From Candidatus Magasanikiibacteriota bacterium (GTDB lineage Bacteria > Patescibacteriota > Patescibacteriia > Magasanikbacterales > GWA2-37-8), in NCBI GenBank assembly GCA_023246655.1, contig JAHFHX010000002.1, positions 31,693-95,692 on the forward strand: DNA of 64,000 nucleotides. Direction: 5' to 3'. The number at the start of each line of letters is the position of its first letter. Within the stretch, counting starts at the first letter, position 1. This document shows positions 13,109-60,385 of the stretch, piece by piece. The position numbers and the translations under genes are program-made. Below the pieces are notes generated by a model. That model had not been told where the DNA came from and ran no database searches. It was given only the letters and a program-made list of their open reading frames with translations.

Positions 13109-13221
13109 TGTCATTGCGAGCGAAACGGAGAGTGAAGCGAAGCAATCTCCCTGTTTAAGTAATTCTCAAATCCAGGGGATTGCCACGTCGTTCGCCGCGA
13201 GGCTCACTCCTCGCAATGACA
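13109..13221. repeat. Family-A palindromic element (intergenic).
   Basis: gtcattgcgagcgaaacggag...gcaatctccc...ggggattgcc...ctcctcgcaatgaca. Confidence 0.7.
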
Positions 13222-13257
13222 CACTACCACCTACAACCTAATTCTTAATTCCTCATT

Positions 13258-15349: not shown

Positions 15350-17050
15350 CTACATCCCTTCCGCCGGCGTACACACCCCACCCAGTGCAACTGTTCCCTG
15401 TGGGCACACACAAGCGTTGCCATTCCATACAAAGGTGGCGGAACAGCTTTGCGGTGTTTCAGGACTCGCCGCTTTGAACCGGAGAGGTATAAACTCTGAT
15501 CTAACTAGAAATTCAGACTTGCTGGTATAACCGGAGGCGGCGCGGCCATCATTGGCTTTGGCTTCGATATACCAGGCATAATTACTGTCCCACTTGAGAT
15601 TACCGGCTGGAACCGTTGCCCAACTACAAACCCAGTGATTGGCGGCATCGGTACAATTTTTATCGACAGTTTCGCCTTTGTCCCAATCGCGTTCCCAAAC
15701 TTTTTGATTGGAGTCAGTATCGATAACGTACCAACGAAAGTAGGCTTTAATATTTTGGGGATAGGTCCAGATTAAGACTGGGTTCAAGGTATTAACCGTA
15801 ACGCTGTCGGTTGGGCTCGTAATGGTTGGTTTCGGGGCCTTGGCGGCTTCACAGCGCTGAATGGGCTCGGGTTGGTTTTGTTGGAGAATAATTACCCATT
15901 CACAGCCCATGAGATTGGCTTGACAATCAAACTTGTCGGTGAGTCGTTCACACTGCTTGTAGAAGCATTTACCCTCTCGTTTGGGATTATCAATGTCTTT
16001 TGGATCAGTCCATTTCCATTCACAGATGGGGGCAACGTTGCAAAAATCTTCCTTGACAATATCTTTACAGTTGGGAAGAGGTTTATCTTTACCCGGGTTC
16101 CAAGTGGCGGTGTTATTATTGGTGTTGTTCTCTTGGGTAATGCTTTTGATGGTCATGCCGAGGGAGAAGATGTCGTTTTTCCTGCCCGGTATGCGCCAAC
16201 TTTGGTAGGTAATTCCCCCAGCTGAGAGCGAGATATTAACAGAACTAGAAACAATCATGCTCTTCGGTGGGGTGGAAAGGTCAGAGCGAATGAGGACGTT
16301 TTCAAAACCACCTTTGGCTTCGGCTTTGCCGTTGTTATTAACACTGTAGATAACCAGAGTTTCGTTGGTCATGCGAGGGAGAAGGAAAACATCCCCAAAA
16401 GCAAGGTCGGGAGCGGGAGGGGCAATCTCAACGAAAAGAGGTTTGAGTTCTATTGGCTTAAGCATCATAACTTTGGGTTTACCTGGGACGGTGAAACACC
16501 CACCAATCAATCTCCAACTACAATCATTCCTGAGAATACAAACATTTTTATCGGAGAGTTTTTCACAGGCCGTATTCTGGGCCACTTCCAAAATAGTGCT
16601 GTTGTTATTTTCATCCCTTTCTATCACTTGGTTATTGCTGTCTACCAATATACTCACCTGCTGAACAGTGCCGACACTGTTAACCAATTTTTGAGAAAAA
16701 ACTGGAGTGTAGAAAACTTCTCTGCCAGCCTCAAAACCATCAACTTCAATTTTACTAATAAATACGGTGTTTTTATCACCCTGTAAAATGGTTTTGAGCG
16801 TAAAGGAAGTGGTAGGCAGATTGCCATCATTGCGCGCTTTAAAATTAACTACCATATCACCATTTTTATTGATGAGGAGGCTGACATTTTTGTCTACCAA
16901 TAAATCGGCTTGAAAGGCGAAAATTTTTTTGGTTTGGAACTGCATTTTTTGTACGGCTCTGGCCGTGTTGGTCATCCCCAATCCGAAAATAACTCCACAC
17001 AAAACTATCAAGCTAATTCGCCAGACATAATTGTGAATAGTGGTACGCAT
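15350..17050 (-). CDS. Secreted cysteine-rich surface protein with a CARDB-like domain.
   Basis: Signal peptide, ...IERDENNNSTILEV (CARDB C-terminal signature) and several Cys-rich modules. Confidence 0.55.
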   Translation of the reverse strand: MRTTIHNYVWRISLIVLCGVIFGLGMTNTARAVQKMQFQTKKIFAFQADLLVDKNVSLLINKNGDMVVNFKARNDGNLPTTSFTLKTILQGDKNTVFISKIEVDGFEAGREVFYTPVFSQKLVNSVGTVQQVSILVDSNNQVIERDENNNSTILEVAQNTACEKLSDKNVCILRNDCSWRLIGGCFTVPGKPKVMMLKPIELKPLFVEIAPPAPDLAFGDVFLLPRMTNETLVIYSVNNNGKAEAKGGFENVLIRSDLSTPPKSMIVSSSVNISLSAGGITYQSWRIPGRKNDIFSLGMTIKSITQENNTNNNTATWNPGKDKPLPNCKDIVKEDFCNVAPICEWKWTDPKDIDNPKREGKCFYKQCERLTDKFDCQANLMGCEWVIILQQNQPEPIQRCEAAKAPKPTITSPTDSVTVNTLNPVLIWTYPQNIKAYFRWYVIDTDSNQKVWERDWDKGETVDKNCTDAANHWVCSWATVPAGNLKWDSNYAWYIEAKANDGRAASGYTSKSEFLVRSEFIPLRFKAASPETPQSCSATFVWNGNACVCPQGTVALGGVCTPAEGM

Positions 17051-17073: not shown

Positions 17074-19392
17074 TTACTGATTCTGAATATCAATAGTGAC
17101 TTCGGTCATATTCTGAGCTTCGCTCTTGGAAATTTTAATCTGATAGGTTTTTTCTTGTTGTGCTTTGAGACCAACTTTTTCACTAACCGCATATTGTTTG
17201 AGCTGGCCTTGAGGAGAATTGAGAGAAACCGTGGCATTAAAGCCGGCCGTTGGTAATAATAGACTATCGTTCTTTACCGAAAATACTAACCGATACTCAA
17301 AACCTTTGCCCTTACCAACAGGGACAACCTTTCTCGCGACATGAGGGGTTTGGTTAATCACCACGCCTCCATCGAGTGAGATCTCAAAAACATTATTATT
17401 CTCGTCGCTTTCGAATACCTGATCGACAGAATCAATTTTAACTCTCACTTTAGATACCGTATCACCCGCTTGCTTCAATGCTTCCAGTACATTGCTAACC
17501 GGCATATAAAAAATTTCTGGTTGGAGCTGGTTATGCCCGCGCACCTCTTTAGCACAAAATTTTGGCTTCGGATTTCCTAAGTAGTCGGTATAGTCCACCA
17601 CCTTGCCATCCTTAAGCACAAATTCTACGCTACAGTATACCCTTCCAAGGATGGGAAAAGGAAAGGTGCTCGAAAAACTCACTTCCGATACGGAGGGAGG
17701 CCCGGCATGCTTGAACAAATCAACTCCCAGTATTTTAAAGTCTCCTGGCACCGGCACCTCAACCATATTATTCTCCGGGTGCTTATCCTCGGCGTAGGTT
17801 TTTACATTAACTGAAAACCGAACGCTTTTTACTTGACCGCGGGTTTTTTGGAGGGCCAGCGGCAAATTAGGCACTTTGATGTACAATGGTTTCTTAAAGG
17901 GAAGATTTGGATAATAATTGGTGGGCACATTGCGGTAAATACATTCTTTTTGTTTATCTTTATCTAAGTAGTTTATATAATCAGCGGTTCTACCGTCATT
18001 AAACATAAGCTGCGCGTCACATTTTACCCATTCTAATGGGTACGGAAAAGAATTAGTAAAAGCAATCTCCGAAGATGGTTCGGCATCCGGTCCTTTAAAT
18101 AAATCTACTTCCACTACTTCCAAATCTCCCGTCAGGGGAATTTCAATAACATTATTATTTTCATTGGTTTCACTTACACTGTCCTCTTCAGTTCCATCCG
18201 ACTGTTTAATTTTTGGATCAATGGTAAATCGCATTTTAGCGGCAACACCGCTCATTACTTTTAACGCCTCGCCAAATCTAGGAACAATCAGCGTTAACCG
18301 ATCGGGGTTAACAATCATGCCGCTACAAGCGTTATACAAAAATTTATCAACTAGTACCTCCGCGTAATTTCTAATTTTGCCATCAGCATACACAAACTCA
18401 GCCTTACAACTGAGGCCTCGAGGAATGGGAAACGTACTCTCTACAGTAATTTTGGCTGATTTCTGAAAAGCTTTGTCAATAATACCCTCAGTCTCCACTT
18501 TTACTAATTTAAAATCACCTGTTGTGGATATTTCATACCCATTGTTGGTTTCGTCACTTTCAAATACCATGTTAGTATCATCGATAGTAAACTTAATTTT
18601 AGTAGCATGGCCGCCTATATTCCCGCCGAGGAGTAGGTTAGGGAGATAGCGAACGTAAAAATAGATTTCTTTGGGATTACTGCTGTCGACAATACACTTT
18701 GCTTCTTTTTTTAATGATAACCCCTCTACCGTGGTCATGCCGCCAAATAAGGAAGCGTAATTAACCACGGTAGTGGTTGTCATACCACCAAGTTTTTGGG
18801 AATATTTGTAGACGGACTCAATTTCTACTTTGCAGGTTACATTTTGATTGATAGGCTCCCCAAACGTGCTGGCAACCGTAATTTTTCCGGCGGGAATAGG
18901 TTTATTAGTGGTATTATCGGTATTCCACAATTCTACCCGCTTAATTGATAAATCACCGGCGTAGCTTACCGAGCGATTATCGTTTTCATCACTTTCGGTA
19001 ATGGCGTCCAGGTTGTCGGCTTTTATTTCAATACGGGCCACATCTTTATAGGCAGCGGCTACGTTCCGAGTAACAGCTCGCTGAGCGTTAACCTTAAGAC
19101 TCCCCACTTTTTCCGTGAAAACAATATTCTTGCCATTCCTTAAAACAACCGTTTCGGCAACCTGAAAAGCGGTAGCATCAAAGTCGGTGCTCGAAAGAAT
19201 ATAACTATAGGTAAATGATGGGTCATTAAGATTTACAACCGCGCTTTTTACTCCTTGAGAGAAGACAATATTAGGAAATTTTTGTTGTTTTTCAGCCACT
19301 TCGCCTTTTTTAGGCGCGGCCATGGCTGGTACAACACTTAAAAAAAGAGCCACAATAATAGCCGCGGGAAATGATTTTTTTATAGTGCGCAT
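17074..19392 (-). CDS. Secreted multi-CARDB-domain protein (about 6 tandem about 110-aa repeats).
   Basis: Signal peptide. Repeats each end in an E(S)DExNN motif (ESDENDNRSV, ESDETNNGYE, ETNENNNVIE, EDKHPENNMVE, ESDENNNVFE). Confidence 0.6.
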   Translation of the reverse strand: MRTIKKSFPAAIIVALFLSVVPAMAAPKKGEVAEKQQKFPNIVFSQGVKSAVVNLNDPSFTYSYILSSTDFDATAFQVAETVVLRNGKNIVFTEKVGSLKVNAQRAVTRNVAAAYKDVARIEIKADNLDAITESDENDNRSVSYAGDLSIKRVELWNTDNTTNKPIPAGKITVASTFGEPINQNVTCKVEIESVYKYSQKLGGMTTTTVVNYASLFGGMTTVEGLSLKKEAKCIVDSSNPKEIYFYVRYLPNLLLGGNIGGHATKIKFTIDDTNMVFESDETNNGYEISTTGDFKLVKVETEGIIDKAFQKSAKITVESTFPIPRGLSCKAEFVYADGKIRNYAEVLVDKFLYNACSGMIVNPDRLTLIVPRFGEALKVMSGVAAKMRFTIDPKIKQSDGTEEDSVSETNENNNVIEIPLTGDLEVVEVDLFKGPDAEPSSEIAFTNSFPYPLEWVKCDAQLMFNDGRTADYINYLDKDKQKECIYRNVPTNYYPNLPFKKPLYIKVPNLPLALQKTRGQVKSVRFSVNVKTYAEDKHPENNMVEVPVPGDFKILGVDLFKHAGPPSVSEVSFSSTFPFPILGRVYCSVEFVLKDGKVVDYTDYLGNPKPKFCAKEVRGHNQLQPEIFYMPVSNVLEALKQAGDTVSKVRVKIDSVDQVFESDENNNVFEISLDGGVVINQTPHVARKVVPVGKGKGFEYRLVFSVKNDSLLLPTAGFNATVSLNSPQGQLKQYAVSEKVGLKAQQEKTYQIKISKSEAQNMTEVTIDIQNQ

Positions 19393-21303: not shown

Positions 21304-21408
21304 TTGTCATTCCGAGGAGCGAGGAACAAGTGACGTGGCGATCTCCCCGACATGAGACATCGACGGGGAGATTGCTTCGTCGTCGTGCGAGCTCCTTCTC
21401 GCAATGAC
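21304..21408. repeat. Family-A palindromic element inserted between groES and groEL.
   Basis: gtcattccgaggagcgagg...gatctcccc...ggggagattgc...ttctcgcaatgaca. Confidence 0.7.
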
Positions 21409-21410
21409 AG

Positions 21411-21689
21411 TTATTTGACGACAGCAAGAATATCCCCTTGCGACACAATCTTATATTCCTCTTTCTCGAGTTCGACCTTATCCCCCCCCCAGCTCTTGAG
21501 CAAAACTACATCGCCTGCCTTTACATCCATTGCTTGGCGCTTGCCATCATCCATCATTTTGCCAGGGCCGACTGCTACGACTTCGGCTTCGGGCAACTCT
21601 TTTTCATTGGTGAGAATGATGCCGGATTTAGTTTTTTCCTCTTTTTTTTGTTTGACGAGAACGTTATCTCCGAGTGGTTGTATATTCAT
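21411..21689 (-). CDS. groS: Co-chaperonin GroES.
   Basis: MNIQPLGDNVLVKQ...AVGPGKMMDDGKRQAMDVKAGDVVL. Confidence 0.95.
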   Translation of the reverse strand: MNIQPLGDNVLVKQKKEEKTKSGIILTNEKELPEAEVVAVGPGKMMDDGKRQAMDVKAGDVVLLKSWGGDKVELEKEEYKIVSQGDILAVVK

Positions 21690-23965: not shown

Positions 23966-25072
23966 CTAAAATTGCCTCTCCGAAAGATCTCTCACGTTCG
24001 TTCGAGATGACAATTGTTGTATTTTCTCTAACCACTTATTTCTAATCGCAAGCCTTGTGTCATTCTCATGAAATTTTAATACCCCGTCCGCGATGACGAC
24101 TCCGTGGTCGTTTCGCTTGGCTTTTTCTTTAAGCGAAAATTTCATTTTCGTCAGTTGTAATTTTTTGGCTTCATTTTCAACTACATTACCATAACTCCCC
24201 TGCCACATTGCTTCCCAGGCACGTTTCCAGAGGCGACCGAGCCGAGTGTCAGCAACATTATTCTTGTCATTTCGAACACGTTCACTGCGTTCAGTGTAAA
24301 CTCCGTGAGAAATCTCTGGCTCACTCGACGACGGACAGAGATTTCTCCCGCCAGAGGCGGGTAGGCGTCGCGCTGTGTCCGCCTTTGGCGGAAGGCTCGC
24401 TCGGAATGACAAATTGGGTAAATATCGTTCTACCCATCGATTGGCCTGTAGAAATTTTTCATAATAATTTTCCGGATCATACACCGGCGTCATCATATTA
24501 AGCCAATAGGCAAAGTGGATGTCATCATCAGCGATTCTCCATGGAGCCAAATTGAGATGATCGATATCCACATAGAATGAGAGACAAATTCGATCAGCTT
24601 GATGTGCACCGTATGTCCTAAGACCAAACAGGCGTAAAATGAGATTAGTAAAAAACCGCACAATCCAAATTCGATTTTTATCACTCACTATAAAAAAATC
24701 AATATCACTCTCAGCTCGGGCCATAGCCGCACCAACGGAATTACAAACAAAAATTGCTTTGAGAAATGGTACAGAACGAATGAATTTAACAGCGCGGCGG
24801 GCAATAATTAATTTTTGGTCGGTAATTTCTGCGGCGCGTTGACGCTCAGCAATTAAATTCTCACGGCCGGGGAGAAAATAGTAACCACAGCCGAGTTTGT
24901 AGTTCATAGCTTTTAGTTCATAATTTGTCTCACCACAAGTGCTCATAAATTCTGCATGACCTATTCTGGGCGGCGTCCATAAATAGCAAAACAGCTCCTC
25001 GTGCATCAAAGGGAAATTAATAAGATCAAAATAAGTTAACGTTTTTACTATTGATTGATCTAATGGTTTCAT
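23966..25072 (-). CDS. Nucleotidyltransferase-domain protein with an in-frame family-B insert.
   Basis: GAAMARAESDIDFFIV (GS...SDxD minimal NTase motif). The insert reads PPKADTARRLPASGGRNLCPSS. Confidence 0.45.
   Translation of the reverse strand: MKPLDQSIVKTLTYFDLINFPLMHEELFCYLWTPPRIGHAEFMSTCGETNYELKAMNYKLGCGYYFLPGRENLIAERQRAAEITDQKLIIARRAVKFIRSVPFLKAIFVCNSVGAAMARAESDIDFFIVSDKNRIWIVRFFTNLILRLFGLRTYGAHQADRICLSFYVDIDHLNLAPWRIADDDIHFAYWLNMMTPVYDPENYYEKFLQANRWVERYLPNLSFRASLPPKADTARRLPASGGRNLCPSSSEPEISHGVYTERSERVRNDKNNVADTRLGRLWKRAWEAMWQGSYGNVVENEAKKLQLTKMKFSLKEKAKRNDHGVVIADGVLKFHENDTRLAIRNKWLEKIQQLSSRTNVRDLSERQF
24264..24412. repeat. Family-B palindromic element (GTCATYYCGA ... GAAATCTCTG ... 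CAGAGATT ... GCTCGCTCGGAATGAC).
   Basis: It shares the core gagaaatctctggctcac.gacgacggacagagat with elements at 36287, 37812, 41199 and 49720. Confidence 0.7.
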
Positions 25073-29801: not shown

Positions 29802-30788
29802 TCACTGCACTACTATATCACCAATCTGGTCCGTTCGCAAAATATCCGCCCCCGTGCGTTCGAGTCGCTTGAACACGCGGTGTGATGGATGGCCATATTT
29901 ATTTTTACCAACTGAGACGATGGCAGTTTTTGCCCGCACAATACTTAAAAATTCTTCACTGCTCCCCGAATCACTGCCATGGTGACCGACTTTGAGAGTG
30001 TCGGCGTGGAGGGCGGGGCAGGTGCCGACGCGCTCCCGCGCTCCCATTTGCGAGTCCTCCCCCTGCCCCCTCCCCTGCGGTGGAGGGGTGACGTTAGCTC
30101 CCCTCCCCACCGCAGGCCGTAGGTCCTCCGAGGAGGGTGGGAGGGTTAGGGAGAGGTCTGGCGTTGTCGTTCCACAATACTTCTCCATCAACACATCCTC
30201 CAACGGCACCTCCATATCGCCCGTGAATAAAAATCTTTCATTTCCGTGCGTCAGTTTAAAAACAATGGAGTAGTTATTACTATCGGCCGCGGCAACGTCC
30301 AAGTGGAGCGCCGGGTCGGGTGAAATAAATTGGAGTGTATCGCTGGCAATCGTCCAAGTCGTGGGCGACGCCATCGTAATAATCTTAGCCCCCGCTTCCT
30401 CATGCATCATTTTATTCCATTCTTGCCAATACGGATCATATTTTTTCTCGTGCCCATTCACAATAATATTTTTTACATTGTAGCGTTGCAGCACATCAAC
30501 ACACCCACCGTAGTGGTCCAGGTCCGGATGGGTGGCAACCACATAATCAATAGTGCGATTGTAAAATGGCAAATGGCGACCGAGTGCACTGAGCACGATT
30601 TTATTCGGTCCACAGTCTACCAGCATCTTTTGTCCATTTTCAAACTTGATGAGCGCACTATCCCCTTGGCCGATGTTGAGGAAGTCGACTTCGAAGTGGT
30701 GGGGGCGGTGGGAATCAAAATAAACATACAGGAGCATCCCTCCCGCTAATATCAAGCTTAGAATAATAACTACAATAATTTTTTTCAT
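29802..30788 (-). CDS. ComEC-type metallo-beta-lactamase domain protein (detached C-terminal ComEC module) with an in-frame GC-rich insert.
   Basis: FLNIGQGDSALIKF...VATHPDLDHYGG...LKVGHHGSDSGS...VSVGKNKYGHPS. Confidence 0.75.
   Translation of the reverse strand: MKKIIVVIILSLILAGGMLLYVYFDSHRPHHFEVDFLNIGQGDSALIKFENGQKMLVDCGPNKIVLSALGRHLPFYNRTIDYVVATHPDLDHYGGCVDVLQRYNVKNIIVNGHEKKYDPYWQEWNKMMHEEAGAKIITMASPTTWTIASDTLQFISPDPALHLDVAAADSNNYSIVFKLTHGNERFLFTGDMEVPLEDVLMEKYCGTTTPDLSLTLPPSSEDLRPAVGRGANVTPPPQGRGQGEDSQMGARERVGTCPALHADTLKVGHHGSDSGSSEEFLSIVRAKTAIVSVGKNKYGHPSHRVFKRLERTGADILRTDQIGDIVVQ
30040..30160. repeat. Family-C GC-rich hairpin insert.
   Basis: cCTCCCCtgcggtggaGGGGtg ... cCCTCCCCaccgcaggccgtaggtcctccgaggaGGGTGGGAGGG. 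Confidence 0.45.
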
Positions 30789-32083: not shown

Positions 32084-32086
32084 ATT

Positions 32087-32514
32087 GTCATTGCGAGGAG
32101 TGAAACGACGAAGCAATCTCCCCTCTCTGGTTCAGCTAACTAAATTGCGATTTCGTTATACAAATCTTTCCATTCGGGATTTGATTGATTAACAAGTTCT
32201 AATTTTTGCTTTCTCGAGCCGCCTTTCAATTGTTTTTCTCGCACGATGGCGTCTCTGATATCAGAATATTCCTCAAGATACACTAGTTTATTAATTTTAT
32301 ACTTCTTTGTAAAACTTGTTTGTGTACCGGCTCCATCTTTATGTTCTCTTACACGCCGAGCCAAATTGTTAGTGACACCAATATAAAGGGCATTGTTATA
32401 TTGATTGCTAAGAATATAAACGTGGTATTTGTATTCCTTGCTCATACGCGATCGTTTGTTTTTCCGCAGAGGGGGGATTGCTTCGTCGTCGCTTTGCTCC
32501 TCCTCGCAATGACA
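32087..32514. mobile_element. Composite element: family-A left arm (32087-32130) + GIY-YIG gene + family-A right arm (32472-32514).
   Basis: The two arms are reverse-complementary (tgaaacgacgaagcaatctcccc versus gggggattgcttcgtcgtcgcttt). The gene occupies the position of the short loop seen in about 100-bp copies. Confidence 0.4.
32143..32445 (-). CDS. GIY-YIG (URI-domain, YhbQ-like) nuclease.
   Basis: MSKEYKYHVYILSNQYNNALYIGVTNNLARRVREHKDG... (101 aa). Confidence 0.75.
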
Positions 32515-34358
32515 ATGATGAACCCCACATACATCCCCGCCATCCCCCACCACGGCACTTGGAATTGCACCGCTGACCACGGTTGGTTTCCAAACCATTC
32601 TACCACCATTATAACATATCGCAATCCAAAATAAGCGATCCAGGCGACGAGCTGGCCGAGCGGAAAAAAAATGAATCCAAAAATGATGGCGGTGAACCCG
32701 ATGAGCATGAGCCACGGTACCGTCCATAATATGAGAACGTTGACGAGTGGGGCGACGATGGAGAGGCGGCCGAATTGGTAGAGGATGATGGGGAGGGTGG
32801 CGAGGATGGCAGAGAGGGTTTGGAGGAGTGGTTCGCGGATGAAGTTCCATGCCGAATGAAACGCTTGTCCCACGTTGTCATTGCGAGGAGCGAACGAAGT
32901 GAGCGACGCGGCAATCTCCCCTTGGTGGTCATGATGGGGGGATTGCTTCGTCGTTTCACTCCTCGCAATGACAGATTCGAGCACCGGCGAAATATAAACG
33001 AGCCCCAGTGTCGCCAAAAATGATAATTGGAACCCCGCGTCCCACACCAGCACATACGGATTCGCGATGGTCATTACTGCGGCAGTAAAAACCAGCACGT
33101 TGCCAATGCGCGAGAGCCTGCCAAGCTGCTGCGCTGTGAGAACAAGAAAACCCATAATTCCCGCACGCACCACTGAACCAGTAGCGCCCGTAAAAATAAT
33201 GAATAAGATAATAAACCCAACCACCGCCCAATACGCGTGCTGACGCCAGAGGCCCAGACGGATGAGCATGAACATGAGCGCTGTTACGATGATGGTGATG
33301 TTAAAACCGGAGACAGCGATGATGTGCGAGACGCCGGTTTTATTAAAGTCGTCGATAATTTCTTTGGGTAAACCACTTTTGCTTCCATATAATAATCCTT
33401 GCATTAAACTACTTTCCGGTTCACTCCAGAGATTTTCGATTTTAGATTGTATGTGAGATTTGAGGAGGAAGATTTTTTTTATAACCCACACCTTAGGCGC
33501 CAAACTGTCATTGCGAGGAGGGAGCCTCGCGGCGACCGACGTGGCAATCTCCCCGTTTTGCTCTTGTCGGAGGGATTGCCGCGCTCGTTCCTCGCTCGCA
33601 ATGACAATTGACTTAGGAAAACTACACACCGCCCAAATCCCCTCTTTCGCCAAATATTTATCATACCTAAAACTACTCCCATCCAAATTCTCCGGCGCAC
33701 GCAGTTGGCAGTCAAATTTGATCTGGTCGCCGTAATTAAATGTAGGATATAACCGCGAGATGACGAGAACTTTCCCACTCACATCTTTAGCCAACTGCCC
33801 TTCTTTGATATTGGAAATTGAAACAACATATTTTGCATTCGTCATACTGGTGTCTGGTTCGGCCGTTATGACACCGGCCGCTTGGACATGTTTACCAACA
33901 TAATATTCAATTCGGTCTGGTGTGATGTTGGGAATGGTGATGACAAATCGCCAGACGCCGAGGAGAAGGGATAAGGAACAAAGAACAAGAAAACGGATCT
34001 TTGGTTTGTGCCAAAATAAAATAGCTGATGATATAAGGATAAAAAATGATATGTAGAGATAAAGAGATATTGATACAGCGAACGAAACCCCTCTCTCTGT
34101 CTCTCCCCTTATAGGGGAGAGTAGCGCTGTTGATTGGCTCCCTCCCCCTATAAGGGGGAGGACGGAGGAGGGGGTTTTCGCCACCCAATCACCCAGCGAC
34201 GCCACACCCGCCCCCGCCATAAAACAAAAACAAAACGCGAGGAACGTTTTGCTTTTTGAGTTTACCACGCGAGACATAAGGTCTTTTACGTGGGTGATAA
34301 TTTTTTGCAGACCCTCCCCTAGCATAATTTTACACTTCGATACTTTTTCCCTCCTCAA
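32442..34358 (-). CDS. comEC: Competence protein ComEC/Rec2 membrane channel (no MBL domain) with several in-frame repeat inserts.
   Basis: DUF4131-like N-terminus. Competence domain GVSHIIAVSGFNITIIVTALMF... Inserts are ASEERARQSLRQEQNGEIATSVAARLPPRNDS, ARSETTKQSPHHDHQGEIAASLTSFAPRNDN and a GC-rich one. The C-terminal tail is repeat-derived. Confidence 0.8.
   Translation of the reverse strand: MRREKVSKCKIMLGEGLQKIITHVKDLMSRVVNSKSKTFLAFCFCFMAGAGVASLGDWVAKTPSSVLPLIGGGSQSTALLSPIRGETERGVSFAVSISLYLYISFFILISSAILFWHKPKIRFLVLCSLSLLLGVWRFVITIPNITPDRIEYYVGKHVQAAGVITAEPDTSMTNAKYVVSISNIKEGQLAKDVSGKVLVISRLYPTFNYGDQIKFDCQLRAPENLDGSSFRYDKYLAKEGIWAVCSFPKSIVIASEERARQSLRQEQNGEIATSVAARLPPRNDSLAPKVWVIKKIFLLKSHIQSKIENLWSEPESSLMQGLLYGSKSGLPKEIIDDFNKTGVSHIIAVSGFNITIIVTALMFMLIRLGLWRQHAYWAVVGFIILFIIFTGATGSVVRAGIMGFLVLTAQQLGRLSRIGNVLVFTAAVMTIANPYVLVWDAGFQLSFLATLGLVYISPVLESVIARSETTKQSPHHDHQGEIAASLTSFAPRNDNVGQAFHSAWNFIREPLLQTLSAILATLPIILYQFGRLSIVAPLVNVLILWTVPWLMLIGFTAIIFGFIFFPLGQLVAWIAYFGLRYVIMVVEWFGNQPWSAVQFQVPWWGMAGMYVGFIIVIARRSKATTKQSPLCGKTNDRV
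32876..32974. repeat. Family-A element, in frame in comEC.
   Basis: gtcattgcgaggagcgaacgaagtgagcgacgcggcaatctcccc ttggtggtcatgatg gggggattgcttcgtcgtttcactcctcgcaatgaca. Confidence 0.75.
33506..33606. repeat. Family-A element, in frame in comEC.
   Basis: gtcattgcgaggagggagcctcgcgg...ggcaatctcccc...ggagggattgcc...ctcgctcgcaatgaca. Confidence 0.75.
34070..34200. repeat. Family-C GC-rich double-hairpin insert in comEC.
   Basis: CTCTCCCCttataGGGGAGAG ... CTCCCCCtataaGGGGGAG. Confidence 0.45.
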
Positions 34359-34968
34359 TAACCAGCCACTTAATTTCCGGATTCAAAAGTTTTTCTGGCA
34401 TTAAATAAAATGGACCAGTAATTTTGAGGAAAGCATCGTGCACGGGGAAACAAATTTTTGGCTTAATAGCGTTAGCATAATCAATTGTCTGCGCTACACG
34501 CATCCAAGGTGCGACTGCGGGGTAGGCCAGCACTTCACACTCCACAACGTTGTCGAGCGAGTCCCCACCGTAGAAAAACTTTTTGGCAATGCGATAGCCA
34601 GTGTTGTGAACGCGCGGGAAGGTAGGATAAATTTCAGCGTGCATTTGGCCAAAGCCTTCGATGAGGACGCCGTTGACCGTGATGCTTTGGCTGTCACCGA
34701 GCACGTCGAATACTACATTTGCTTCCACGAGTTTTTGCCCAACGCCAGGGTTGGTAAAAATGTGAGTTTTGGGATTTTTAGCAAGAATAGCTTGGAGAGA
34801 ATCAAGATCACAATGATCCTGATGTTCGTGCGTGATCAGGATTGCATCGAGATTTTCGACGTTATTCTGCAGAGTCGAATATTTGCCCGGATCGAGAAGG
34901 ATGCGAGCACTTCCCTCTTCGATGAGTAAACACGAGTGCCCAAACTTAGTGATACGCATATTATTCAA
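34330..34968 (-). CDS. MBL-fold metallo-hydrolase.
   Basis: ILITHEHQDHCD and downstream His/Asp ligands. Confidence 0.8.
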   Translation of the reverse strand: MNNMRITKFGHSCLLIEEGSARILLDPGKYSTLQNNVENLDAILITHEHQDHCDLDSLQAILAKNPKTHIFTNPGVGQKLVEANVVFDVLGDSQSITVNGVLIEGFGQMHAEIYPTFPRVHNTGYRIAKKFFYGGDSLDNVVECEVLAYPAVAPWMRVAQTIDYANAIKPKICFPVHDAFLKITGPFYLMPEKLLNPEIKWLVIEEGKSIEV

Positions 34969-35384: not shown

Positions 35385-38300
35385 CTACACTACTATACTT
35401 ATTAATTTCCCCCTCACATAAATCACCTTCTTCGGCTCTTTACCATCCAGCCACTTCTGAATTTTTTCGCTCGCGAGCGCTTGGTTTTTAATTTCGTCTT
35501 CGGATATATCAGCTGGCACCTCAAGCTGCTCACGCACTTTGCCATTTACTTGAACAACAATGGTGATCATGGACTCTTTGGCGAGCTCGGGATCAAACTT
35601 TGGCCAAGGGGAATACGCTAATATCTCTTTATCTCCATATAACTCCCATAATTCCTCCGCAATATGTGGGGCAAAAGGTGAGAGAAGTTGAATTAATATT
35701 TGATATTGGATATTAGATATTTTTTCTTCTTTCATCATTTCATTCGTGAGTTCCATCAGCTTCGCAATGGCAGTATTAAAATGCATTGCTTCGATATCAT
35801 CGGAGACTTTTTTGATGGTTTGATGAAGAAGGGTCGTTATCTTGTCATTGCGAGGAGCCGAAGGCGACGCGGCAATCTCCCCTTTTGACTCTTGTCGGGG
35901 GGATTGCTTCGCTCGTTCCTCGCTCGCAATGACACGTTCTTGAAGTGACCATACCCGATCCAAAAATCTCCGCACGCCAACCAACCCATTCGTATCCCAC
36001 TTCACCGCCTGATCAAACGGCCCCATGAAACCAATATACGCGCGAAAAGCATCCGTACCAAATTGTTCAATCATTTCATCGGGGTTGATAACATTCCCGC
36101 GGCTCTTACTCATTTTCTCACCATCCGGACCCAAAATCATGCCATGACTGGTACGTTTTTTATATGGCTCGCGCGTAGGCACTACGCCAATGTCGTATAA
36201 AAATTGATTCCAGAAACGGGAATACAATAAGTGAAGCACCGTGTGTTCCATGCCGCCGTTATACCAATCAACACCACCCCCGCGTTTGTCATCCCGAGCG
36301 AGGCTCGCGCCGACGAGGGATCTCTGTCCGTCGGTTGGTGAGTGAGCCAGAGATTCCTCCTTCGTCGTCGGAGTGACAGGATTACCATCCATCCAGTACC
36401 GCAGCTTCTCCATTGATGCAAATTCTTTATCGTTATTCGGATCCGCGTATCTTAAGAAATACCAAGAAGAACCGGCCCAATTCGGCATAGTATCAGTTTC
36501 CCGTTTCGCTGGTCCGCCACAACGTGGGCAGGTGGTGTTCACCCAATCACTCATCGCCGAGAGCGGACTTTCGCCCGTGTCGGTTGGTTCGTATTTTTCT
36601 ACTTTGGGGAGTTTGAGTGGGAGTTCGGACTCGGGAAGCGGGATCCAGCCGGTTTGTTCTAATGCTTTGAGAATTTCTGGTTCCTGGCCATCATTGGTAA
36701 AATGTTGGGCAACTGGTTCCACGAATTGAGCTGAAGCGTGCATTGCTTTCATCATTTCTCGTGCCTGATTTTCTGGAATTACTGGAAAATTTTTATCAAC
36801 TACAAGCACAATTTCTTTCGCGTTTTTTTTAATTTTCTCAAAATTAAATTGCCAATTGAAACTTTGCTCAACTTCCGGTCGTGCGCGATCAGCAAATTCG
36901 GGACGAATAAAACAATCAACCAAAACAAGTTTCGCGATTGTTTTTTTTAAATGTTCTACCAAATTCATGGCTACAGCTCCACCAAGGCTCGTGGCAACAA
37001 TAACAGTGTTTTCGTTTATTTCTGTTTTTTCCAATACCGATTTTACTTGTTCCTCAATATTTGGCTGCATCGGGTTTGGGAGGTCTGGTGCAAATACCGT
37101 ATGACCTTGTTTTTCTAGTTCTTCTTTAAGCCGCGGGAAAAATATTCCTTGAGAGCTGCCTTTGAATCCATGAAGTAAAATATAGTTATATTTTTTCTTT
37201 CTGCAATTCTCACATTTTACGAGGGGAATCGGTTCGCCCCAGTAGCGCTGACGAGAGAAAACCCAATCGCGGAGTTTGAAATTAATCTGCCGACGAGCCA
37301 TTCCTTTTTGCTCTAACCAAGGTAAAATCTTTTCGCGCGCTTCCGCAGAAGTTAAACCATCAAACTGACCGGAGTTAACCAGAGTGCCTTCACTGGGGAA
37401 GCACTCTTCTAACTTTTGCACGCGCTCCCACAGCGCATCGTCGGCTGGTCGGATAGAAACTTTGAGCGGCAGGCTATATTTTTTAGCCATAGCAAAATCG
37501 CGCTCGTCGTGGGCATCGGCAAATACCGCGCCAGTGCCGTACTGAGCTAACACAAAATCGGCAATCCAAATAGGCATTTTGTCGCCGGTTGCTGGGTTCA
37601 GTGCATACGATCCGGTGAAGACCCCCGACTTGTCCTTTTCTTCAGCAGTACGTTCGATGTCAGTTTTTTGCGCAGTCTCCTGAACATATTTTTCAACCGC
37701 TTTTTTCTGTTCGGGAGTAGCTAATTGTTTTACGAGCGGGTGTTCAGGTGCAATGACTAAGAATGTACCCGAAAAAATGGTGTCGAGTCGGGTGGTGAAG
37801 ACTTCGATTGGTTGAGACAGGGATTCCTCGTCGGCGCGAGCCTCGCTCGGAATGACAGTAAAACGGACGACAGCCCCTTCCGAGCGCCCAATCCAATTTT
37901 CCTGTTGCACGCGCGCGGGAGTAATATAGTTAACTTCTTTGAGACCGTCGAGGAGTTTATCGGCATATTTGGTAATGGCAAGCATCCACTGCTCTTTATC
38001 TCGTTTTTCCACGGGCGTGCCACAACGTTCACAACAGCCGTCCACCACCTCTTCATTAGCGAGGCCAGTCTTATCTTTCGGACACCAATTAACAGGCTGA
38101 TTTTTTTTGTAAGCTAACCCGTGTTTATATAATTGTAAAAAAATCCACTGCGTCCATTTGTAATATGTGGGATCGGTGGTATCAACAGCGCGCGACCAAT
38201 CAAAACTATAGCCCAACGCTTTAAGCTGGCGGGTGAAATTGGCAATATTCTCGGCCGTAACTTCCGCGGGTGGGCGACCGGTTTTAATCGCAAAATTTTC

Positions 38301-38585: not shown

Positions 38586-38969
38586 TTACGCAGATTTGTG
38601 ATAGTAAACTACGCGTTGGAATTCTAGACTTGGATTTCCGAAGTTGAGAATTAAACCAATTTCTAATTCCGATGCCTTTAAATAAGAGACGAGTTGAGCT
38701 TGAAATATTTTTGGCATTTTTCCTGAAATAGCTTTAATTTCTATGACTACTTTTTTATCAACAATGAGATCGACTCTAAAATCGCCAATTTTAATCTTTT
38801 TCCAGTATACTTTAAAAGGTTGTTCTGTTTCAACTTTATTACCAGCTTCTTCAAGGATTGCAATCATTCCCTTGTGATAAATAATTTCCTTAAAACCTGG
38901 ACCCAATTCCGTGTGCAGCTTCATTGCCAGACCAATAATTTGTCGAGTTAACGTCTCCTCCTTAAACAT
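38586..38969 (-). CDS. GxxExxY protein (PD-(D/E)XK-like).
   Basis: ELGPGFKEIIYHKGM matches GxxExxY. Confidence 0.7.
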   Translation of the reverse strand: MFKEETLTRQIIGLAMKLHTELGPGFKEIIYHKGMIAILEEAGNKVETEQPFKVYWKKIKIGDFRVDLIVDKKVVIEIKAISGKMPKIFQAQLVSYLKASELEIGLILNFGNPSLEFQRVVYYHKSA

Positions 38970-39060: not shown

Positions 39061-39876
39061 TTATTTCAACAAATCTAAAAGTTTAGAATGTAATTCCGGA
39101 TTAGTAATAACGATATCGCGCCGACCACGTTTCCACGGGGCGCCATCACAGTTGGTTACCAAGGCTCCGGCTTCGGGTGCAATCGTGGCGATGGCAGCGT
39201 AATCATGATCAAAGCCGCAATTGCCAACATAAAAATCGGCTCCGCCACTCGCCACATAACAAGAACTTAACATGGTTCCAAAATTGTGCATCCAAACCGT
39301 GGTCTCATTGGTTAGATGATCCAAAAAGCGACGGTAACGACTCTCGTGCACGGTGTTAACACCGCGAACGCAAATGCCGAAGCCATGGTCGAGCGACGCT
39401 ACCTGATTAACGTGGATGGGCAGGCCGTTCAAAGTCGCGCCTTCACCTACTTTGGCAAAAAATAATTCATTCGCCAACGGATTGTAAATGGCGGCGGCGT
39501 AGGGTTCGGCGCGCTCATAGAGTGCCACCATGGTGCACCACATTCCGATACCAAAAGCAAAATTACGCGTGCCATCAATGGGGTCAATAATCCACTCGTA
39601 CTCCGCACCTTCCGTGCCTTCAGGTGGAGCCTCTTCACTGACAATGCGATGAAGCGGGAAACGTTCCTTTATTTTGTTAATCAAAAATGTATTAACGGCC
39701 ACGTCAGCCTCGGTAACTAAATCACCAAGATGGGCTTTACTTTTAAAGCTTACCCCTTTTAGAAAAAAATCTTTAGCGATGTTGCCGCCCTCAACAATAA
39801 TTTGTTGTAAAAATTCATGCATAGAGCCCTCTGCATTATAAGCGCCCTGTTGCCCTAAGAAAATCGTCCACAGCAA
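39061..39876 (-). CDS. Inositol-monophosphatase family protein.
   Basis: EWIIDPIDGTRNF motif. Confidence 0.85.
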   Translation of the reverse strand: MLWTIFLGQQGAYNAEGSMHEFLQQIIVEGGNIAKDFFLKGVSFKSKAHLGDLVTEADVAVNTFLINKIKERFPLHRIVSEEAPPEGTEGAEYEWIIDPIDGTRNFAFGIGMWCTMVALYERAEPYAAAIYNPLANELFFAKVGEGATLNGLPIHVNQVASLDHGFGICVRGVNTVHESRYRRFLDHLTNETTVWMHNFGTMLSSCYVASGGADFYVGNCGFDHDYAAIATIAPEAGALVTNCDGAPWKRGRRDIVITNPELHSKLLDLLK

Positions 39877-40470: not shown

Positions 40471-41499
40471 TCATCGCTGACATTTTGGACAATAATGCGT
40501 CCCCCGCCCTGCCGCCTTAATTTTCTTAATCACTATCCCACATTGCTTGCACGGCTGCCCGTCACGATCGTAAACTTTAAGGAAATCTGTGTAATTACCT
40601 TTTTTACCAGAGCTGTCAAGAAAATTTCGGAAGGTTGTGCCGCGATGTTTGAGGGCTTCCTGAAGAATTACAGGAATAGCGTGGAATAATTTTTTTTGCT
40701 CTTCTTTTGTCACGGAACCAACACGACGATTGGGACGAACGCCAGCCCGAAAGCAGGCTTCATCAACATAGATGTTGCCTAAGCCCGCGATGAGTTCTTG
40801 ATTGAGGAGCAATGCTTTGAGATTAGTATTTTTTCTTTTTTTGAAGAGGGAGGAGAAATAGTCAAAACTAAATTCCTGGGAACGAGCCCTCACCCTGCGT
40901 CCCTCTCCCGCAGGGCGAGGAAGCGAAATGGGTTCAGGGCCATATTTTTTAAGCACTCTTTCAACTTCAGTTTGAGAAGCTAATTTCATATACCCAAACA
41001 GGCGGAGGTCATTAAAAAATAACTCTCCCCCATCGGCAAACACAAAAACAATTCTGGTCCACTGATTTGGCAAACATTCAATATCTTTTTCCGAAAGTTT
41101 ATGGCCGCCCGCGACTATCTCGATTTCATTTTTTATTTTCTTCTCATAAATAAGCTGGCCGGTCATTTTGAGGTGGACGAGCAAAGCGCCGACTTTTTTG
41201 TCATTTCGAATCCCCCGTCGCAGGGGGTGAGAAATCTCTGGCTCACCGACGACGGACAGAGATTCCTCGTCGCCGCGAGTCTCGCTCGGAATGATAATTG
41301 AACGCTTGAGATACCAAATCATCAGTTTGCCACGGCGCTCAATTTTAGTAATAGCGTTACCGGTGAGTGCGTGAACAAATTTTGTACTCATGCCGCCGAC
41401 ACTCTTTTTATTACGTACCTCAACGTGAACAATTTTCTTGTTCAAGATCTTTTTTTCTAAATCGCGGCGGATGGTTTCAACTTCGGGGAGCTCGGGCAT
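40471..41499 (-). CDS. mutM: Formamidopyrimidine-DNA glycosylase MutM/Fpg with in-frame family-B and family-C inserts.
   Basis: True N-terminus is MPELPEVETIRRDL. C-terminal zinc finger CKQCG...CPKCQ. Confidence 0.85.
   Translation of the reverse strand: MPELPEVETIRRDLEKKILNKKIVHVEVRNKKSVGGMSTKFVHALTGNAITKIERRGKLMIWYLKRSIIIPSETRGDEESLSVVGEPEISHPLRRGIRNDKKVGALLVHLKMTGQLIYEKKIKNEIEIVAGGHKLSEKDIECLPNQWTRIVFVFADGGELFFNDLRLFGYMKLASQTEVERVLKKYGPEPISLPRPAGEGRRVRARSQEFSFDYFSSLFKKRKNTNLKALLLNQELIAGLGNIYVDEACFRAGVRPNRRVGSVTKEEQKKLFHAIPVILQEALKHRGTTFRNFLDSSGKKGNYTDFLKVYDRDGQPCKQCGIVIKKIKAAGRGTHYCPKCQR
41199..41297. repeat. Family-B element, in frame in fpg.
   Basis: gtcatttcgaatcccccgtcgcagggggtgagaaatctctggctcaccgacgacggacagagattcctc...ctcgctcggaatga. 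Confidence 0.7.
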
Positions 41500-49719: not shown

Positions 49720-49860
49720 TGTCATCCCGAGGAGCCTTCCGCCAAAGGCGGACACAGCGCGAGGCCTGCCCGCCTCTGGCGGGAGGGATCTCTCTGTCCG
49801 TCGTTGGTTGATTGAGACAGAGATTCCTCACCCCCTGTGACGGGGGATTCGGAATGACAA
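49720..49860. repeat. Family-B palindromic element (intergenic, extended).
   Basis: gtcatcccgaggagccttccgccaaaggcggacacagcgcgaggcctgcccgcctctggcgggagggatctctctgtccgtcg...gacagagattcctc...ggaatgacaa. Confidence 0.7.
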
Positions 49861-59953: not shown

Positions 59954-60385
59954 TTATTTGGAATTGGTAAACAATTTAAATCCGCGCACCCAATCATGGT
60001 GGTCTAAAAAAGCAAGGAGCACGCGCTGTTGCACACTTTCTAATATATCTTCATCATTGATTCGTATTTGCGCATCAGACATACCAGCGTGTCGCCTTGT
60101 TTCCGAATACAGCAACTTTCTTACGCATTCAAGAGTGTTAGCCTCCAACCGACTCCCCCAAATATTTGCTACATACCGTTCAAAATCCAGGTAACTGTTC
60201 AAAAACGCGGCCTGGTCGAGTTCTTGCTCGGTAATGTCTGGTTTAATCATTTCAAAAATTTTTTCGGCCAATTGCCTCCGTTCTTCCTGGCGCTTTTCCT
60301 CTTCCTGGCGTTTTTGCTTCCCGGCCTGGCTTACTGCGCTTTTTTCTTCAAACATATCCAGTGGGGTACCACGGTATCGTTTCAT
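59954..60385 (-). CDS. Hypothetical protein.
   Basis: 143-aa ORF whose stop overlaps the dnaE 3' end. Confidence 0.4.
   Translation of the reverse strand: MKRYRGTPLDMFEEKSAVSQAGKQKRQEEEKRQEERRQLAEKIFEMIKPDITEQELDQAAFLNSYLDFERYVANIWGSRLEANTLECVRKLLYSETRRHAGMSDAQIRINDEDILESVQQRVLLAFLDHHDWVRGFKLFTNSK

Follow-up and report, generated by a model that had tools for sequence, protein, structure and literature searches.

Why a complete hydrolase should lie inside an essential aminoacyl-tRNA synthetase, and what it could do there, is the question raised by the leucyl-tRNA synthetase (LeuRS) gene in a 64,000-nucleotide stretch of DNA from a Candidatus Magasanikiibacteriota bacterium (GenBank assembly GCA_023246655.1, contig JAHFHX010000002.1, positions 31,693 to 95,692), the whole of which is referred to here as the window. 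Analysis of the gene, its homologues and its predicted structure showed that an alpha/beta hydrolase of the YdeN/RBBP9 family is inserted in frame into a zinc knuckle of this LeuRS, and that the knuckle, the CP1 editing domain and the catalytic residues of the hydrolase are all retained. With moderate confidence, based on sequence comparison and structural models, the hydrolase is read as an accessory, exchangeable and apparently active module nested in the knuckle tip of a fully equipped LeuRS.

The host was a complete LeuRS of 1057 amino acids (aa), as the initial annotation had stated, and every motif quoted there was found at the residues it gave. The class I motifs were HVGHP at residues 49-53 (corresponding to HIGH) and KMSKS at residues 815-819. 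Each residue of the latter (K815, M816, S817, K818 and S819) was unchanged across the 120 best matches to the whole protein, a LeuRS homologue set that is biased to insert-bearing proteins because the query included the insert. The whole protein scored 957.3 bits against the NCBIfam model TIGR00396 leuS_bact (cut-off 548.4). Pfam detected the class I catalytic core, the LeuRS editing domain and the anticodon-binding domain, and the C-terminal domain was also present. The full-length AlphaFold2 (AF2) model, for which the input was an alignment of related LeuRS, had a mean predicted local distance difference test score (pLDDT) of 87 and a predicted template modelling score of 0.83, and the insert with both junctions was confidently modelled (pLDDT 94-98). 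The top PDB match of this model on Foldseek was T. thermophilus LeuRS 2BTE (E=9e-75). None of the LeuRS chains among the 50 best Foldseek matches listed carried such an insert, all having at most 876 residues.

The canonical CP1 motifs, reported earlier as retained, were present at residues 255-260 (TTRLDT) and 349-354 (AHDERD). Residues H350, D351, R353 and D354 were unchanged in all 120 LeuRS, insert-bearing or insert-free, and the TTRxDT region was at least 90% conserved across them, with or without inserts. The same was true of the four knuckle cysteines, which were unchanged in the 120 proteins irrespective of the insert; C449 and C452 aligned with T. thermophilus C439 and C442. A 2026 Nucleic Acids Research paper on the 'ZN domain' of E. 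coli LeuRS concerns the first zinc module (Cys159/176/179). By alignment, the insert-bearing knuckle is the second Cys4 zinc module of LeuRS and is distinct from that 'ZN domain'.

The hydrolase segment had been placed at 36675-37196. These positions (residues 455-628) do lie inside the insert, but the true insert was wider, covering 552 nucleotides or 184 codons, in frame, between both CxxC pairs. The boundaries were obtained from an empty site, the closest insert-less LeuRS (P0004, locus L084), which comes from a Candidatus Magasanikbacteria metagenome-assembled genome (MAG). The DNA of L084 was about 79% identical in the flanks; it matched the window up to 37204 and resumed at 36652, and the two points are adjacent in L084. 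The insert begins with R453-K-K-K and finishes with Q-T-G636, after which Gly-Trp (W638) follows. It lies between CENC (449-452) and GWIPLPESELP...CPRC (677-680) and splits the knuckle, as had been proposed, with all four cysteines kept. The approximately 40 residues from the end of the insert to C677 correspond to the normal knuckle loop. When the insert was deleted in silico, the region aligned to residues 417-514 of T. thermophilus LeuRS with only a one-residue indel, located downstream of the insertion point, which falls between C442 and G443 in T. thermophilus numbering. The linkers were very short, with about 5 residues on the N side.

The GC content at third codon positions (GC3) was 0.23-0.35 exactly over the insert and about 0.45-0.6 in the flanks (overall 0.28, with 0.49 in the remainder of the gene). 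This low GC3, confined to the insert, speaks for a recent acquisition from a foreign source. No mobility gene, target-site duplication or terminal repeat was found around the insert, the repeat matches there being short and at chance level, and no second hydrolase copy was found elsewhere within the 64-kb window. The absence of intein signatures held as well, with no Hint or intein Pfam match at E<=1 and no Cys/Ser or His-Asn junction residues in the insert.

Profile searches bore out the proposed relationship to the alpha/beta hydrolases. The isolated insert scored 38.0 bits against PF06821 Ser_hydrolase (cut-off 22; 33.7 bits for the full protein) and 39.5 bits against PF00561 Abhydrolase_1 (cut-off 25.8), and the two matches spanned approximately residues 460-614 of the full protein. 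With a profile of the LeuRS-resident copies, the best solved relatives in the PDB were B. subtilis YdeN (1UXO, E=4.9e-23) and human RBBP9 (2QS9, about 1e-13). The AF2 model of the insert alone had a pLDDT of 94.9, and on Foldseek its top seven matches were YdeN 1UXO (template modelling score, TM, 0.83) and RBBP9 (TM 0.84-0.85), with a root-mean-square deviation of about 2.5 A. Judged by these profiles and models, the insert is a YdeN/RBBP9-family alpha/beta hydrolase of minimal fold, about 180 residues long. With YdeN (1UXO) and RBBP9 (2QS9, 7OEX) of PF06821 it shares this fold, the same order of HG motif, nucleophile elbow and C-terminal His, and hydrophobic residues at the RBBP9 cage positions. 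In contrast to these free-standing proteins it is nested in an enzyme, and the identity to them was only 20-25%. The insert matched alpha/beta-hydrolase families only, and no match was found to the known editing folds (CP1, INS/YbaK, AlaX, N2, DTD-like).

The motifs of the insert were YILLHGFKGSS (459-469), LPNPMQP (493-499), ATSLGG (522-527), FNFEKIKKN (571-579) and QHF (618-620). Catalytic residues were tallied over 70 knuckle-site copies and in a wider alignment of 155 family members (Table 1). The predicted nucleophile stands directly after the strand 518-523 in the AF2 model, and G526 of its elbow was kept in 70 of the 70 knuckle-site copies. The canonical acid position is occupied by F591 in the window copy, which aligns with the catalytic D138 of RBBP9, after strand beta7; the elbow also differs from that of RBBP9 in reading A-T-S-L-G, and a conserved Asp is found three residues before the Phe. 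Column 591 contained Asp in 39 of the 70 knuckle copies, and Phe or Tyr in the window copy and its subgroup. An acid was present at 588 only in 29 copies, at 591 only in 38, at both positions in 3 and at neither in none. Because the acids at 588 and 591 are nearly mutually exclusive and never both lost, and because D588 is fixed in the subgroup, D588 is probably a relocated triad acid and not a mark of decay. The knuckle-site copies were only 25-47% identical overall despite their fixed catalytic residues, which indicates purifying selection on those residues. The positions of the RBBP9 substrate cage were hydrophobic in the insert alignment, and a nearby acid, D557, was conserved in the window-type subgroup; this part of the alignment is a loop region and gives weak evidence.

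Table 1. Coordinates of the LeuRS gene of the window, its nested hydrolase and related features
Feature	Position	Strand	Basis or remark
Leucyl-tRNA synthetase (LeuRS) gene, complete, 1057 aa	35385..38558	minus	Continuous open reading frame
CP1 editing domain, intact	37314..37901 (aa 220-415)	minus	Pfam PF13603, 200 bits
First CxxC of second zinc knuckle (C449, C452)	37203..37214	minus	Directly upstream of insert
YdeN/RBBP9-type alpha/beta serine hydrolase insert, aa 453-636	36651..37202	minus	Empty-site comparison, Pfam, PDB profile, AF2
H463-G464 codons, 'HG' oxyanion-hole motif	37167..37172	minus	H in 70/70 and G in 67/70 knuckle copies
S524 codon, predicted nucleophile, elbow A-T-S-L-G-G	36987..36989	minus	70/70 knuckle copies; about 99% of 155
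D588 codon, probable relocated triad acid	36795..36797	minus	Unchanged in window-type subgroup; ends AF2 strand 580-588
H619 codon, predicted catalytic His	36702..36704	minus	70/70 knuckle copies; 99% of 155
Second CxxC of second zinc knuckle (C677, C680)	36519..36530	minus	Aligns with T. thermophilus CPKC motif
In-frame palindromic repeat in LeuRS, aa ~231-247	37816..37865		Families D14, I6; CP1-hairpin hot spot
In-frame palindromic repeat in LeuRS, aa ~733-757	36286..36359		Families I5, I6, D17; pLDDT <50 at aa 728-759
In-frame palindromic repeat in LeuRS, aa ~875-898	35865..35934		Family D2; pLDDT <50 at aa 889-903
Free-standing NUDIX hydrolase gene, 140 aa	34961..35383	minus	PF00293, 69.6 bits; starts 1 nucleotide after LeuRS stop
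Giant class Ia synthetases, other Patescibacteria	L031 4198-9363; L076 4060-8733; L080 4771-9636

The initial annotation regarded this architecture as new, a claim that the public sequences do not bear out. A hydrolase occupied the same knuckle codon position in 70 of the 120 best LeuRS homologues, which came from many independent assemblies and were all Patescibacteria where named, and hundreds of public Patescibacteria LeuRS have the insert. Insert-bearing sequences have stood in public databases for years, some of them with automatic annotation; the JGI annotation of one homologue reads 'leucyl-tRNA synthetase/predicted alpha/beta hydrolase family esterase'. A survey of relatives, which had been suggested at the outset, thus recovered the same insertion in many LeuRS but found the closest ones insert-free. 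Full-text literature searches turned up no description of a LeuRS with a nested alpha/beta hydrolase.

Four insertion hot spots were defined relative to an insert-less reference LeuRS. The first was the CP1 hairpin just before TTRxDT (aa ~235-250 of the window protein), which holds the hydrolase or Ham1 in other lineages, and the second was a loop in the C-terminal part of CP1 (aa ~365-392). The third was the zinc knuckle itself (aa 452/453), and the fourth was the loop before the VDWYNGG motif (aa ~722-763), where relatives carry inserts of 170-230 aa. According to precomputed Pfam labels, the other modules in these hot spots were Ham1/ITPase, NUDIX, HAD and methyltransferase domains.

When the insert alone was used as query, an exhaustive HMMER search gave 1024 matches at E<=1e-3. 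The closest of these (40-49% identity) were mostly inside LeuRS, many of them at the CP1 hairpin instead of the knuckle. A genome scan with one genome per species gave 451 loci, and hosts were assigned for the best 80 of the 451: LeuRS in 77, ValRS/IleRS-like proteins in 2 and a free-standing protein in 1. About 19 of the 77 LeuRS loci had the hydrolase at the knuckle, and most of the others had it at the CP1 hairpin. Some loci came from MAGs labelled DPANN archaea or Gammaproteobacteria. The DPANN-labelled loci L029, L030, L033, L036, L037, L044 and L047 (Woesearchaeota, Pacearchaeota, Iainarchaeum, Nanoarchaeia) carried the hydrolase in a bacterial-type LeuRS, except for L044, in which it was free-standing; these are either mis-binned Patescibacteria contigs or cases of transfer between two ultra-small groups.

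Several synthetases held more than one module. Two giant LeuRS of 1722 and 1558 aa gave matches to NUDIX (in three stretches) and to the hydrolase, and to HAD in one of the two, and a ValRS/IleRS-like protein of 1622 aa had a low-molecular-weight phosphatase beside the hydrolase. The hydrolase family was also found nested in ValRS, GluRS (with a HAD domain), AlaRS, UvrA, SecA, TsaD, Der and Fmt, and fused end to end with inositol monophosphatase, glyoxalase, peptidase S51, riboflavin kinase and nucleotidyltransferase. The module belongs to a Patescibacteria-wide habit of carrying small single-domain hydrolases in a few permissive loops of large essential proteins.

On a neighbour-joining (NJ) tree of the LeuRS bodies, the presence or absence of the knuckle hydrolase implied at least 27 gains or losses, and the state of the CP1 C-terminal loop at least 37 changes. 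The nearest relatives of the window LeuRS were without the knuckle insert. Insert identity was nearly uncorrelated with host distance (Spearman rho -0.15), and the best matches of the window insert (56-58% identity) were found in two hosts that are among the most distant. Replacement was also seen between near-identical hosts, in metagenome assemblies that may merge strains. The LeuRS proteins P0063 and P0067 were 100% identical on both sides, with NUDIX as the CP1 cargo of one and HAD as that of the other, and their hydrolases were only 26-78% identical in 60-aa windows. The pair P0033 and P0041 had the same pattern. At the DNA level, loci L081 and L083 were 98-99% identical in the flanks, their two cassettes could not be aligned, and the LeuRS stretch between the cassettes was 88.6% identical. 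The allele types were each recorded in more than one source. In L081 and L083 the central tract looks like an import from a diverged LeuRS allele by homologous recombination.

Two simpler histories fared less well. A site-specific mechanism of cassette insertion was weakened, as the exchanged tract of L081 and L083 includes host sequence (88.6%) and fits allelic homologous recombination. A single insertion origin for all knuckle hydrolases was rejected, since the site holds two hydrolase lineages that are about 25% identical and differ in the position of the acid, the window type (D588, Q504) and the canonical type (D591, W504). In the tree of closer family members, the window-type knuckle copies formed one block beside the CP1-hairpin copies, and the latter were interleaved with a few free-standing proteins and with copies from other hosts.

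The module is accessory and exchangeable, because it is absent in the nearest relatives, has a foreign codon composition and is replaced together with neighbouring LeuRS sequence by allele recombination. As for its activity, RBBP9 is to our knowledge the only biochemically defined relative of the insert. RBBP9 traps the acyl groups Leu/Ile, Met, Phe, Tyr and Trp on its Ser and needs a free alpha-amine (PMC8866121). It is also reported to be a valacyclovir-activating enzyme (valine ester). By analogy, the nested domain would remove free-amine alpha-aminoacyl groups from esters, amides or thioesters, which is the best guess at its chemistry; action on aminoacyl esters is chemically plausible on the same analogy. 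The domain would fold autonomously and work as an independent hydrolase that is made and positioned together with LeuRS. Candidate substrates would be aminoacyl-adenylate-like poisons, editing by-products such as homocysteine thiolactone, and leucine-supplying peptides.

On this proposal LeuRS would not depend on the domain as a second site of tRNA proofreading. The suggestion of an extra proof-reading or deacylase module was not supported, and a dedicated second proofreading site is unlikely because CP1 is invariant, the insert is missing from close relatives and the same loops also house unrelated enzymes. The insert is optional and swapped, SecA, UvrA, Der, TsaD and Fmt are also hosts, and the canonical Asp is replaced by Phe in the window copy. 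CP1 of LeuRS, IleRS and ValRS resembles the insert in being a hydrolytic domain inserted into the catalytic body; however, the folds are unrelated, and CP1 is universal and required for fidelity, whereas the nested hydrolase is optional and polymorphic. The INS domain of ProRS is an inserted hydrolytic domain with stand-alone relatives (YbaK/ProXp, which act in trans-editing), a patchy distribution and a proven role in editing. The hydrolase is likewise inserted, also stand-alone and patchy, but the YbaK fold is unrelated to it and the proven editing is that of INS only.

Three points weigh against the reading of the hydrolase as an accessory, apparently active module of LeuRS. The trees are rough NJ trees, and the hit list from which they were built is skewed to insert-bearing proteins. 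Compared with the family consensus, the window copy has ATSLGG for GHSLGG, W476R, D572N and Phe for the canonical Asp, so that a lower or altered activity is possible. Finally, LeuRS prevails by far among the hosts, its knuckle codon is shared by two lineages of about 25% identity, and the CP1 hairpin holds a further, related set of copies; together this argues for some specific benefit on LeuRS and against a purely incidental passenger.

The alternative that survives best, which we regard as possible but only tentatively so, is that the hydrolase is functionally coupled to its host and acts on aminoacyl species made or bound by LeuRS. It could do so (a) as a second site at which mischarged tRNA-Leu or misactivated aminoacyl-AMP is edited in cis or deacylated, (b) as on-target immunity that hydrolyses antibiotics that mimic aminoacyl-adenylates, or (c) in the detoxification of by-products of editing, for example homocysteine thiolactone. 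The host counts fit such a coupling, with 77 of the 80 best loci in LeuRS and 2 more in ValRS/IleRS-type enzymes, and so does the siting, in which two deeply divergent lineages share the knuckle codon and a third group lies at the CP1 hairpin, next to the editing-site motif. The catalytic residues are 100% conserved, and most of the other hosts (ValRS, AlaRS, GluRS, Fmt and TsaD) handle aminoacyl-tRNA or an aminoacyl-adenylate-like intermediate. RBBP9 cleaves free-amine aminoacyl groups with a hydrophobic side chain, including Leu/Ile, and BPHL, a different alpha/beta hydrolase, is reported to be both a valacyclovirase and a homocysteine thiolactonase (PMC4198189). Against coupling stand the intact CP1 of all 120 LeuRS, which leaves no editing deficit, and the insert-free nearest relatives. 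The NUDIX, HAD, Ham1, methyltransferase and low-molecular-weight phosphatase modules have no obvious link to aminoacyl-ester hydrolysis, and SecA, UvrA and Der are hosts too.

Immunity, the second of these forms of coupling, has some precedent. Resistance to aminoacyl-adenylate mimics uses hydrolases and GNATs, and among Parcubacteria HIT-type resistance homologues that were assayed, one apparently conferred resistance and one was inactive (PMC7157772). The NCBIfam model NF040702 ('ileS_w_GNAT') describes IleRS with a GNAT domain, like the present protein a class Ia synthetase with an extra small enzyme, and LeuRS is the target of agrocin 84 (3ZGZ and 5AH5 were among the PDB matches). The rapid turnover of alleles fits a trait driven by conflict. 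The immunity enzymes MccE, MccF and MccH act on aminoacyl-nucleotide compounds with a free alpha-amine (microcin C type). However, the insert has no homology to them or to a known editing fold and no sequence relationship to the GNAT, S66 and HIT families, and the link to antibiotic immunity is hypothetical. Neither the insert nor six very long synthetases with nested arrays gave a Pfam or NCBIfam match to S66, GNAT or HIT (MccF/MccE/MccH).

It is less probable, though worth stating, that the nested hydrolase, perhaps together with the NUDIX, HAD and Ham1 modules that accompany it in relatives, forms a new kind of on-enzyme protection or quality-control system on LeuRS. An aminoacyl hydrolase of alpha/beta-hydrolase fold, fixed to LeuRS, would then destroy adenylate-mimic toxins, mis-made aminoacyl species or reactive editing by-products where they are bound or formed, and chemical conflict of ultra-small episymbiotic bacteria with one another and with their neighbours would drive the swapping of cassettes.

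An improbable alternative is a selfish or neutral hitch-hiker, an in-frame cassette without benefit to the cell that is kept because its essential host gene tolerates only precise deletion, and that spreads by homologous recombination through the conserved LeuRS flanks, as inteins do but without splicing. The patchy distribution, the incongruent phylogenies of insert and host, the mosaic tracts and the foreign GC3 are in keeping with it. The hosts are essential, conserved genes, in-frame palindromic repeat elements occur in the same loops, and the ComEC competence gene lies two genes away from the locus. Like inteins, the insert is found in frame at conserved sites of essential genes, is patchy and is spread by recombination at the homologous site; unlike them, it has no Hint domain, junction residues or homing endonuclease and is a conserved enzyme predicted to stay in the mature protein. 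A functionless cassette should lose its catalytic residues, but the Ser, the His and the oxyanion His are kept in 70 of 70 copies and the acid is always kept. The lack of flanking mobility genes, target-site duplications and terminal repeats, and of any intein signature, also tells against a selfish element.

It is very unlikely that the insert has lost its catalysis and serves only a structural or regulatory role, for example as a binding platform of which only the fold matters. The Phe at the canonical acid position, the A-T-S-L-G elbow in place of G-H-S-L-G and the changes at W476 and D572 could be read in this way, but S524, H619, H463-G464 and G526 are kept, and D588 is fixed in the subgroup in the pattern of a relocated acid. 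Least credible of all is an artefact, either the chimeric assembly that had been raised as a separate cause or an intein or intron that is lost on the way to the mature protein, for which only the compositional discontinuity at the insert speaks, against the same knuckle codon position being occupied in 70 of 120 homologues, the same architecture in dozens of independent assemblies (NCBI, JGI, ENA and Logan), a continuous reading frame in which no intein junction residues or Hint domain were detected, and junctions confidently modelled by AF2 (pLDDT 95-97).

Within its clade the single gene is ordinary, and the interest lies in the phenomenon across the clade. Extra domains are known in synthetases, but no description was found of a further hydrolase fold, unrelated to the first, within a bacterial class Ia synthetase, nor of the pattern of four LeuRS hot spots with at least 5 enzyme families, single or in tandem, together with other essential hosts and strain-level replacement of cassettes. 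If the module acts on aminoacyl compounds, translational quality control or immunity would gain a new class of factor. If it is only carried along, genome-reduced Patescibacteria would have an unusual means of keeping accessory enzymes within essential genes and exchanging them. The inserts also show where LeuRS, SecA, UvrA and other proteins tolerate insertions in nature, which is of use in protein engineering.

The free-standing NUDIX gene next to LeuRS was considered as a product of fission or fusion of a nested NUDIX gene. Many relatives have a NUDIX domain within CP1. The free-standing gene was only about 30-37% identical to these nested domains and is not a clear orthologue of them, and the idea was dropped.

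The window also contains a dispersed family of GC-rich palindromic elements of 40-70 nucleotides (REP/MITE-like) with the core TGTCATTGCGAGGAG...GGCAATCTCCCC. Copies were found at 563-605, 2836-2894, 13164-13222, 21379-21412, 32086-32131, 32472-32514, 32904-32973, 33506-33608 and 35865-35934, and those of a second subfamily at 24307-24398, 36286-36359, 37816-37865, 41198-41304 and 49732-49860. Three copies are in frame in LeuRS, and at least 2 in a ComEC-like open reading frame (ORF) at 32442-34358. Such insertions give rise to loops modelled with low confidence, 'EERAKQSPRQESKGEIAASPSAPRNDK' being one example. Of the LeuRS copies, two are at hot spots where other lineages carry whole enzyme domains, and the copy at aa ~733-757 is at the hot spot of the 170-230-aa inserts of relatives.

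A small gene of the PD-(D/E)XK_3 nuclease family (GC 0.34) lies upstream of LeuRS in the window (38586-38969, minus strand) and downstream of LeuRS in the closest relative (L084 7754-8164). A gene of the inositol-monophosphatase family is present at 39061-39876 in the window and not at the L084 locus. Judged by gene order, small accessory genes move around LeuRS. A metallo-beta-lactamase-fold gene between LeuRS and ComEC (L081 7455-8090) was present in only one of L081 and L083; it had faint precomputed matches to the anti-Pycsar Apyc1 family, and a homologous gene is found in the window at 34330-34968.

Farther from LeuRS, the ORF for DnaE (Pol III alpha) at 60382-63984 (minus strand, 1200 aa) has an HHH_6 domain that spans 136 residues for 87 profile positions. 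A repeat of 76 nucleotides lies inside this stretched domain (61451-61526) and also at 30076-30151, and the stretch probably represents a further case of a repeat inserted in frame into an essential gene. In the two ORFs at 15350-17050 and 17074-19392 (minus strand, 566 and 772 aa) only a CARDB-type domain was recognised, and both probably encode cell-surface proteins.

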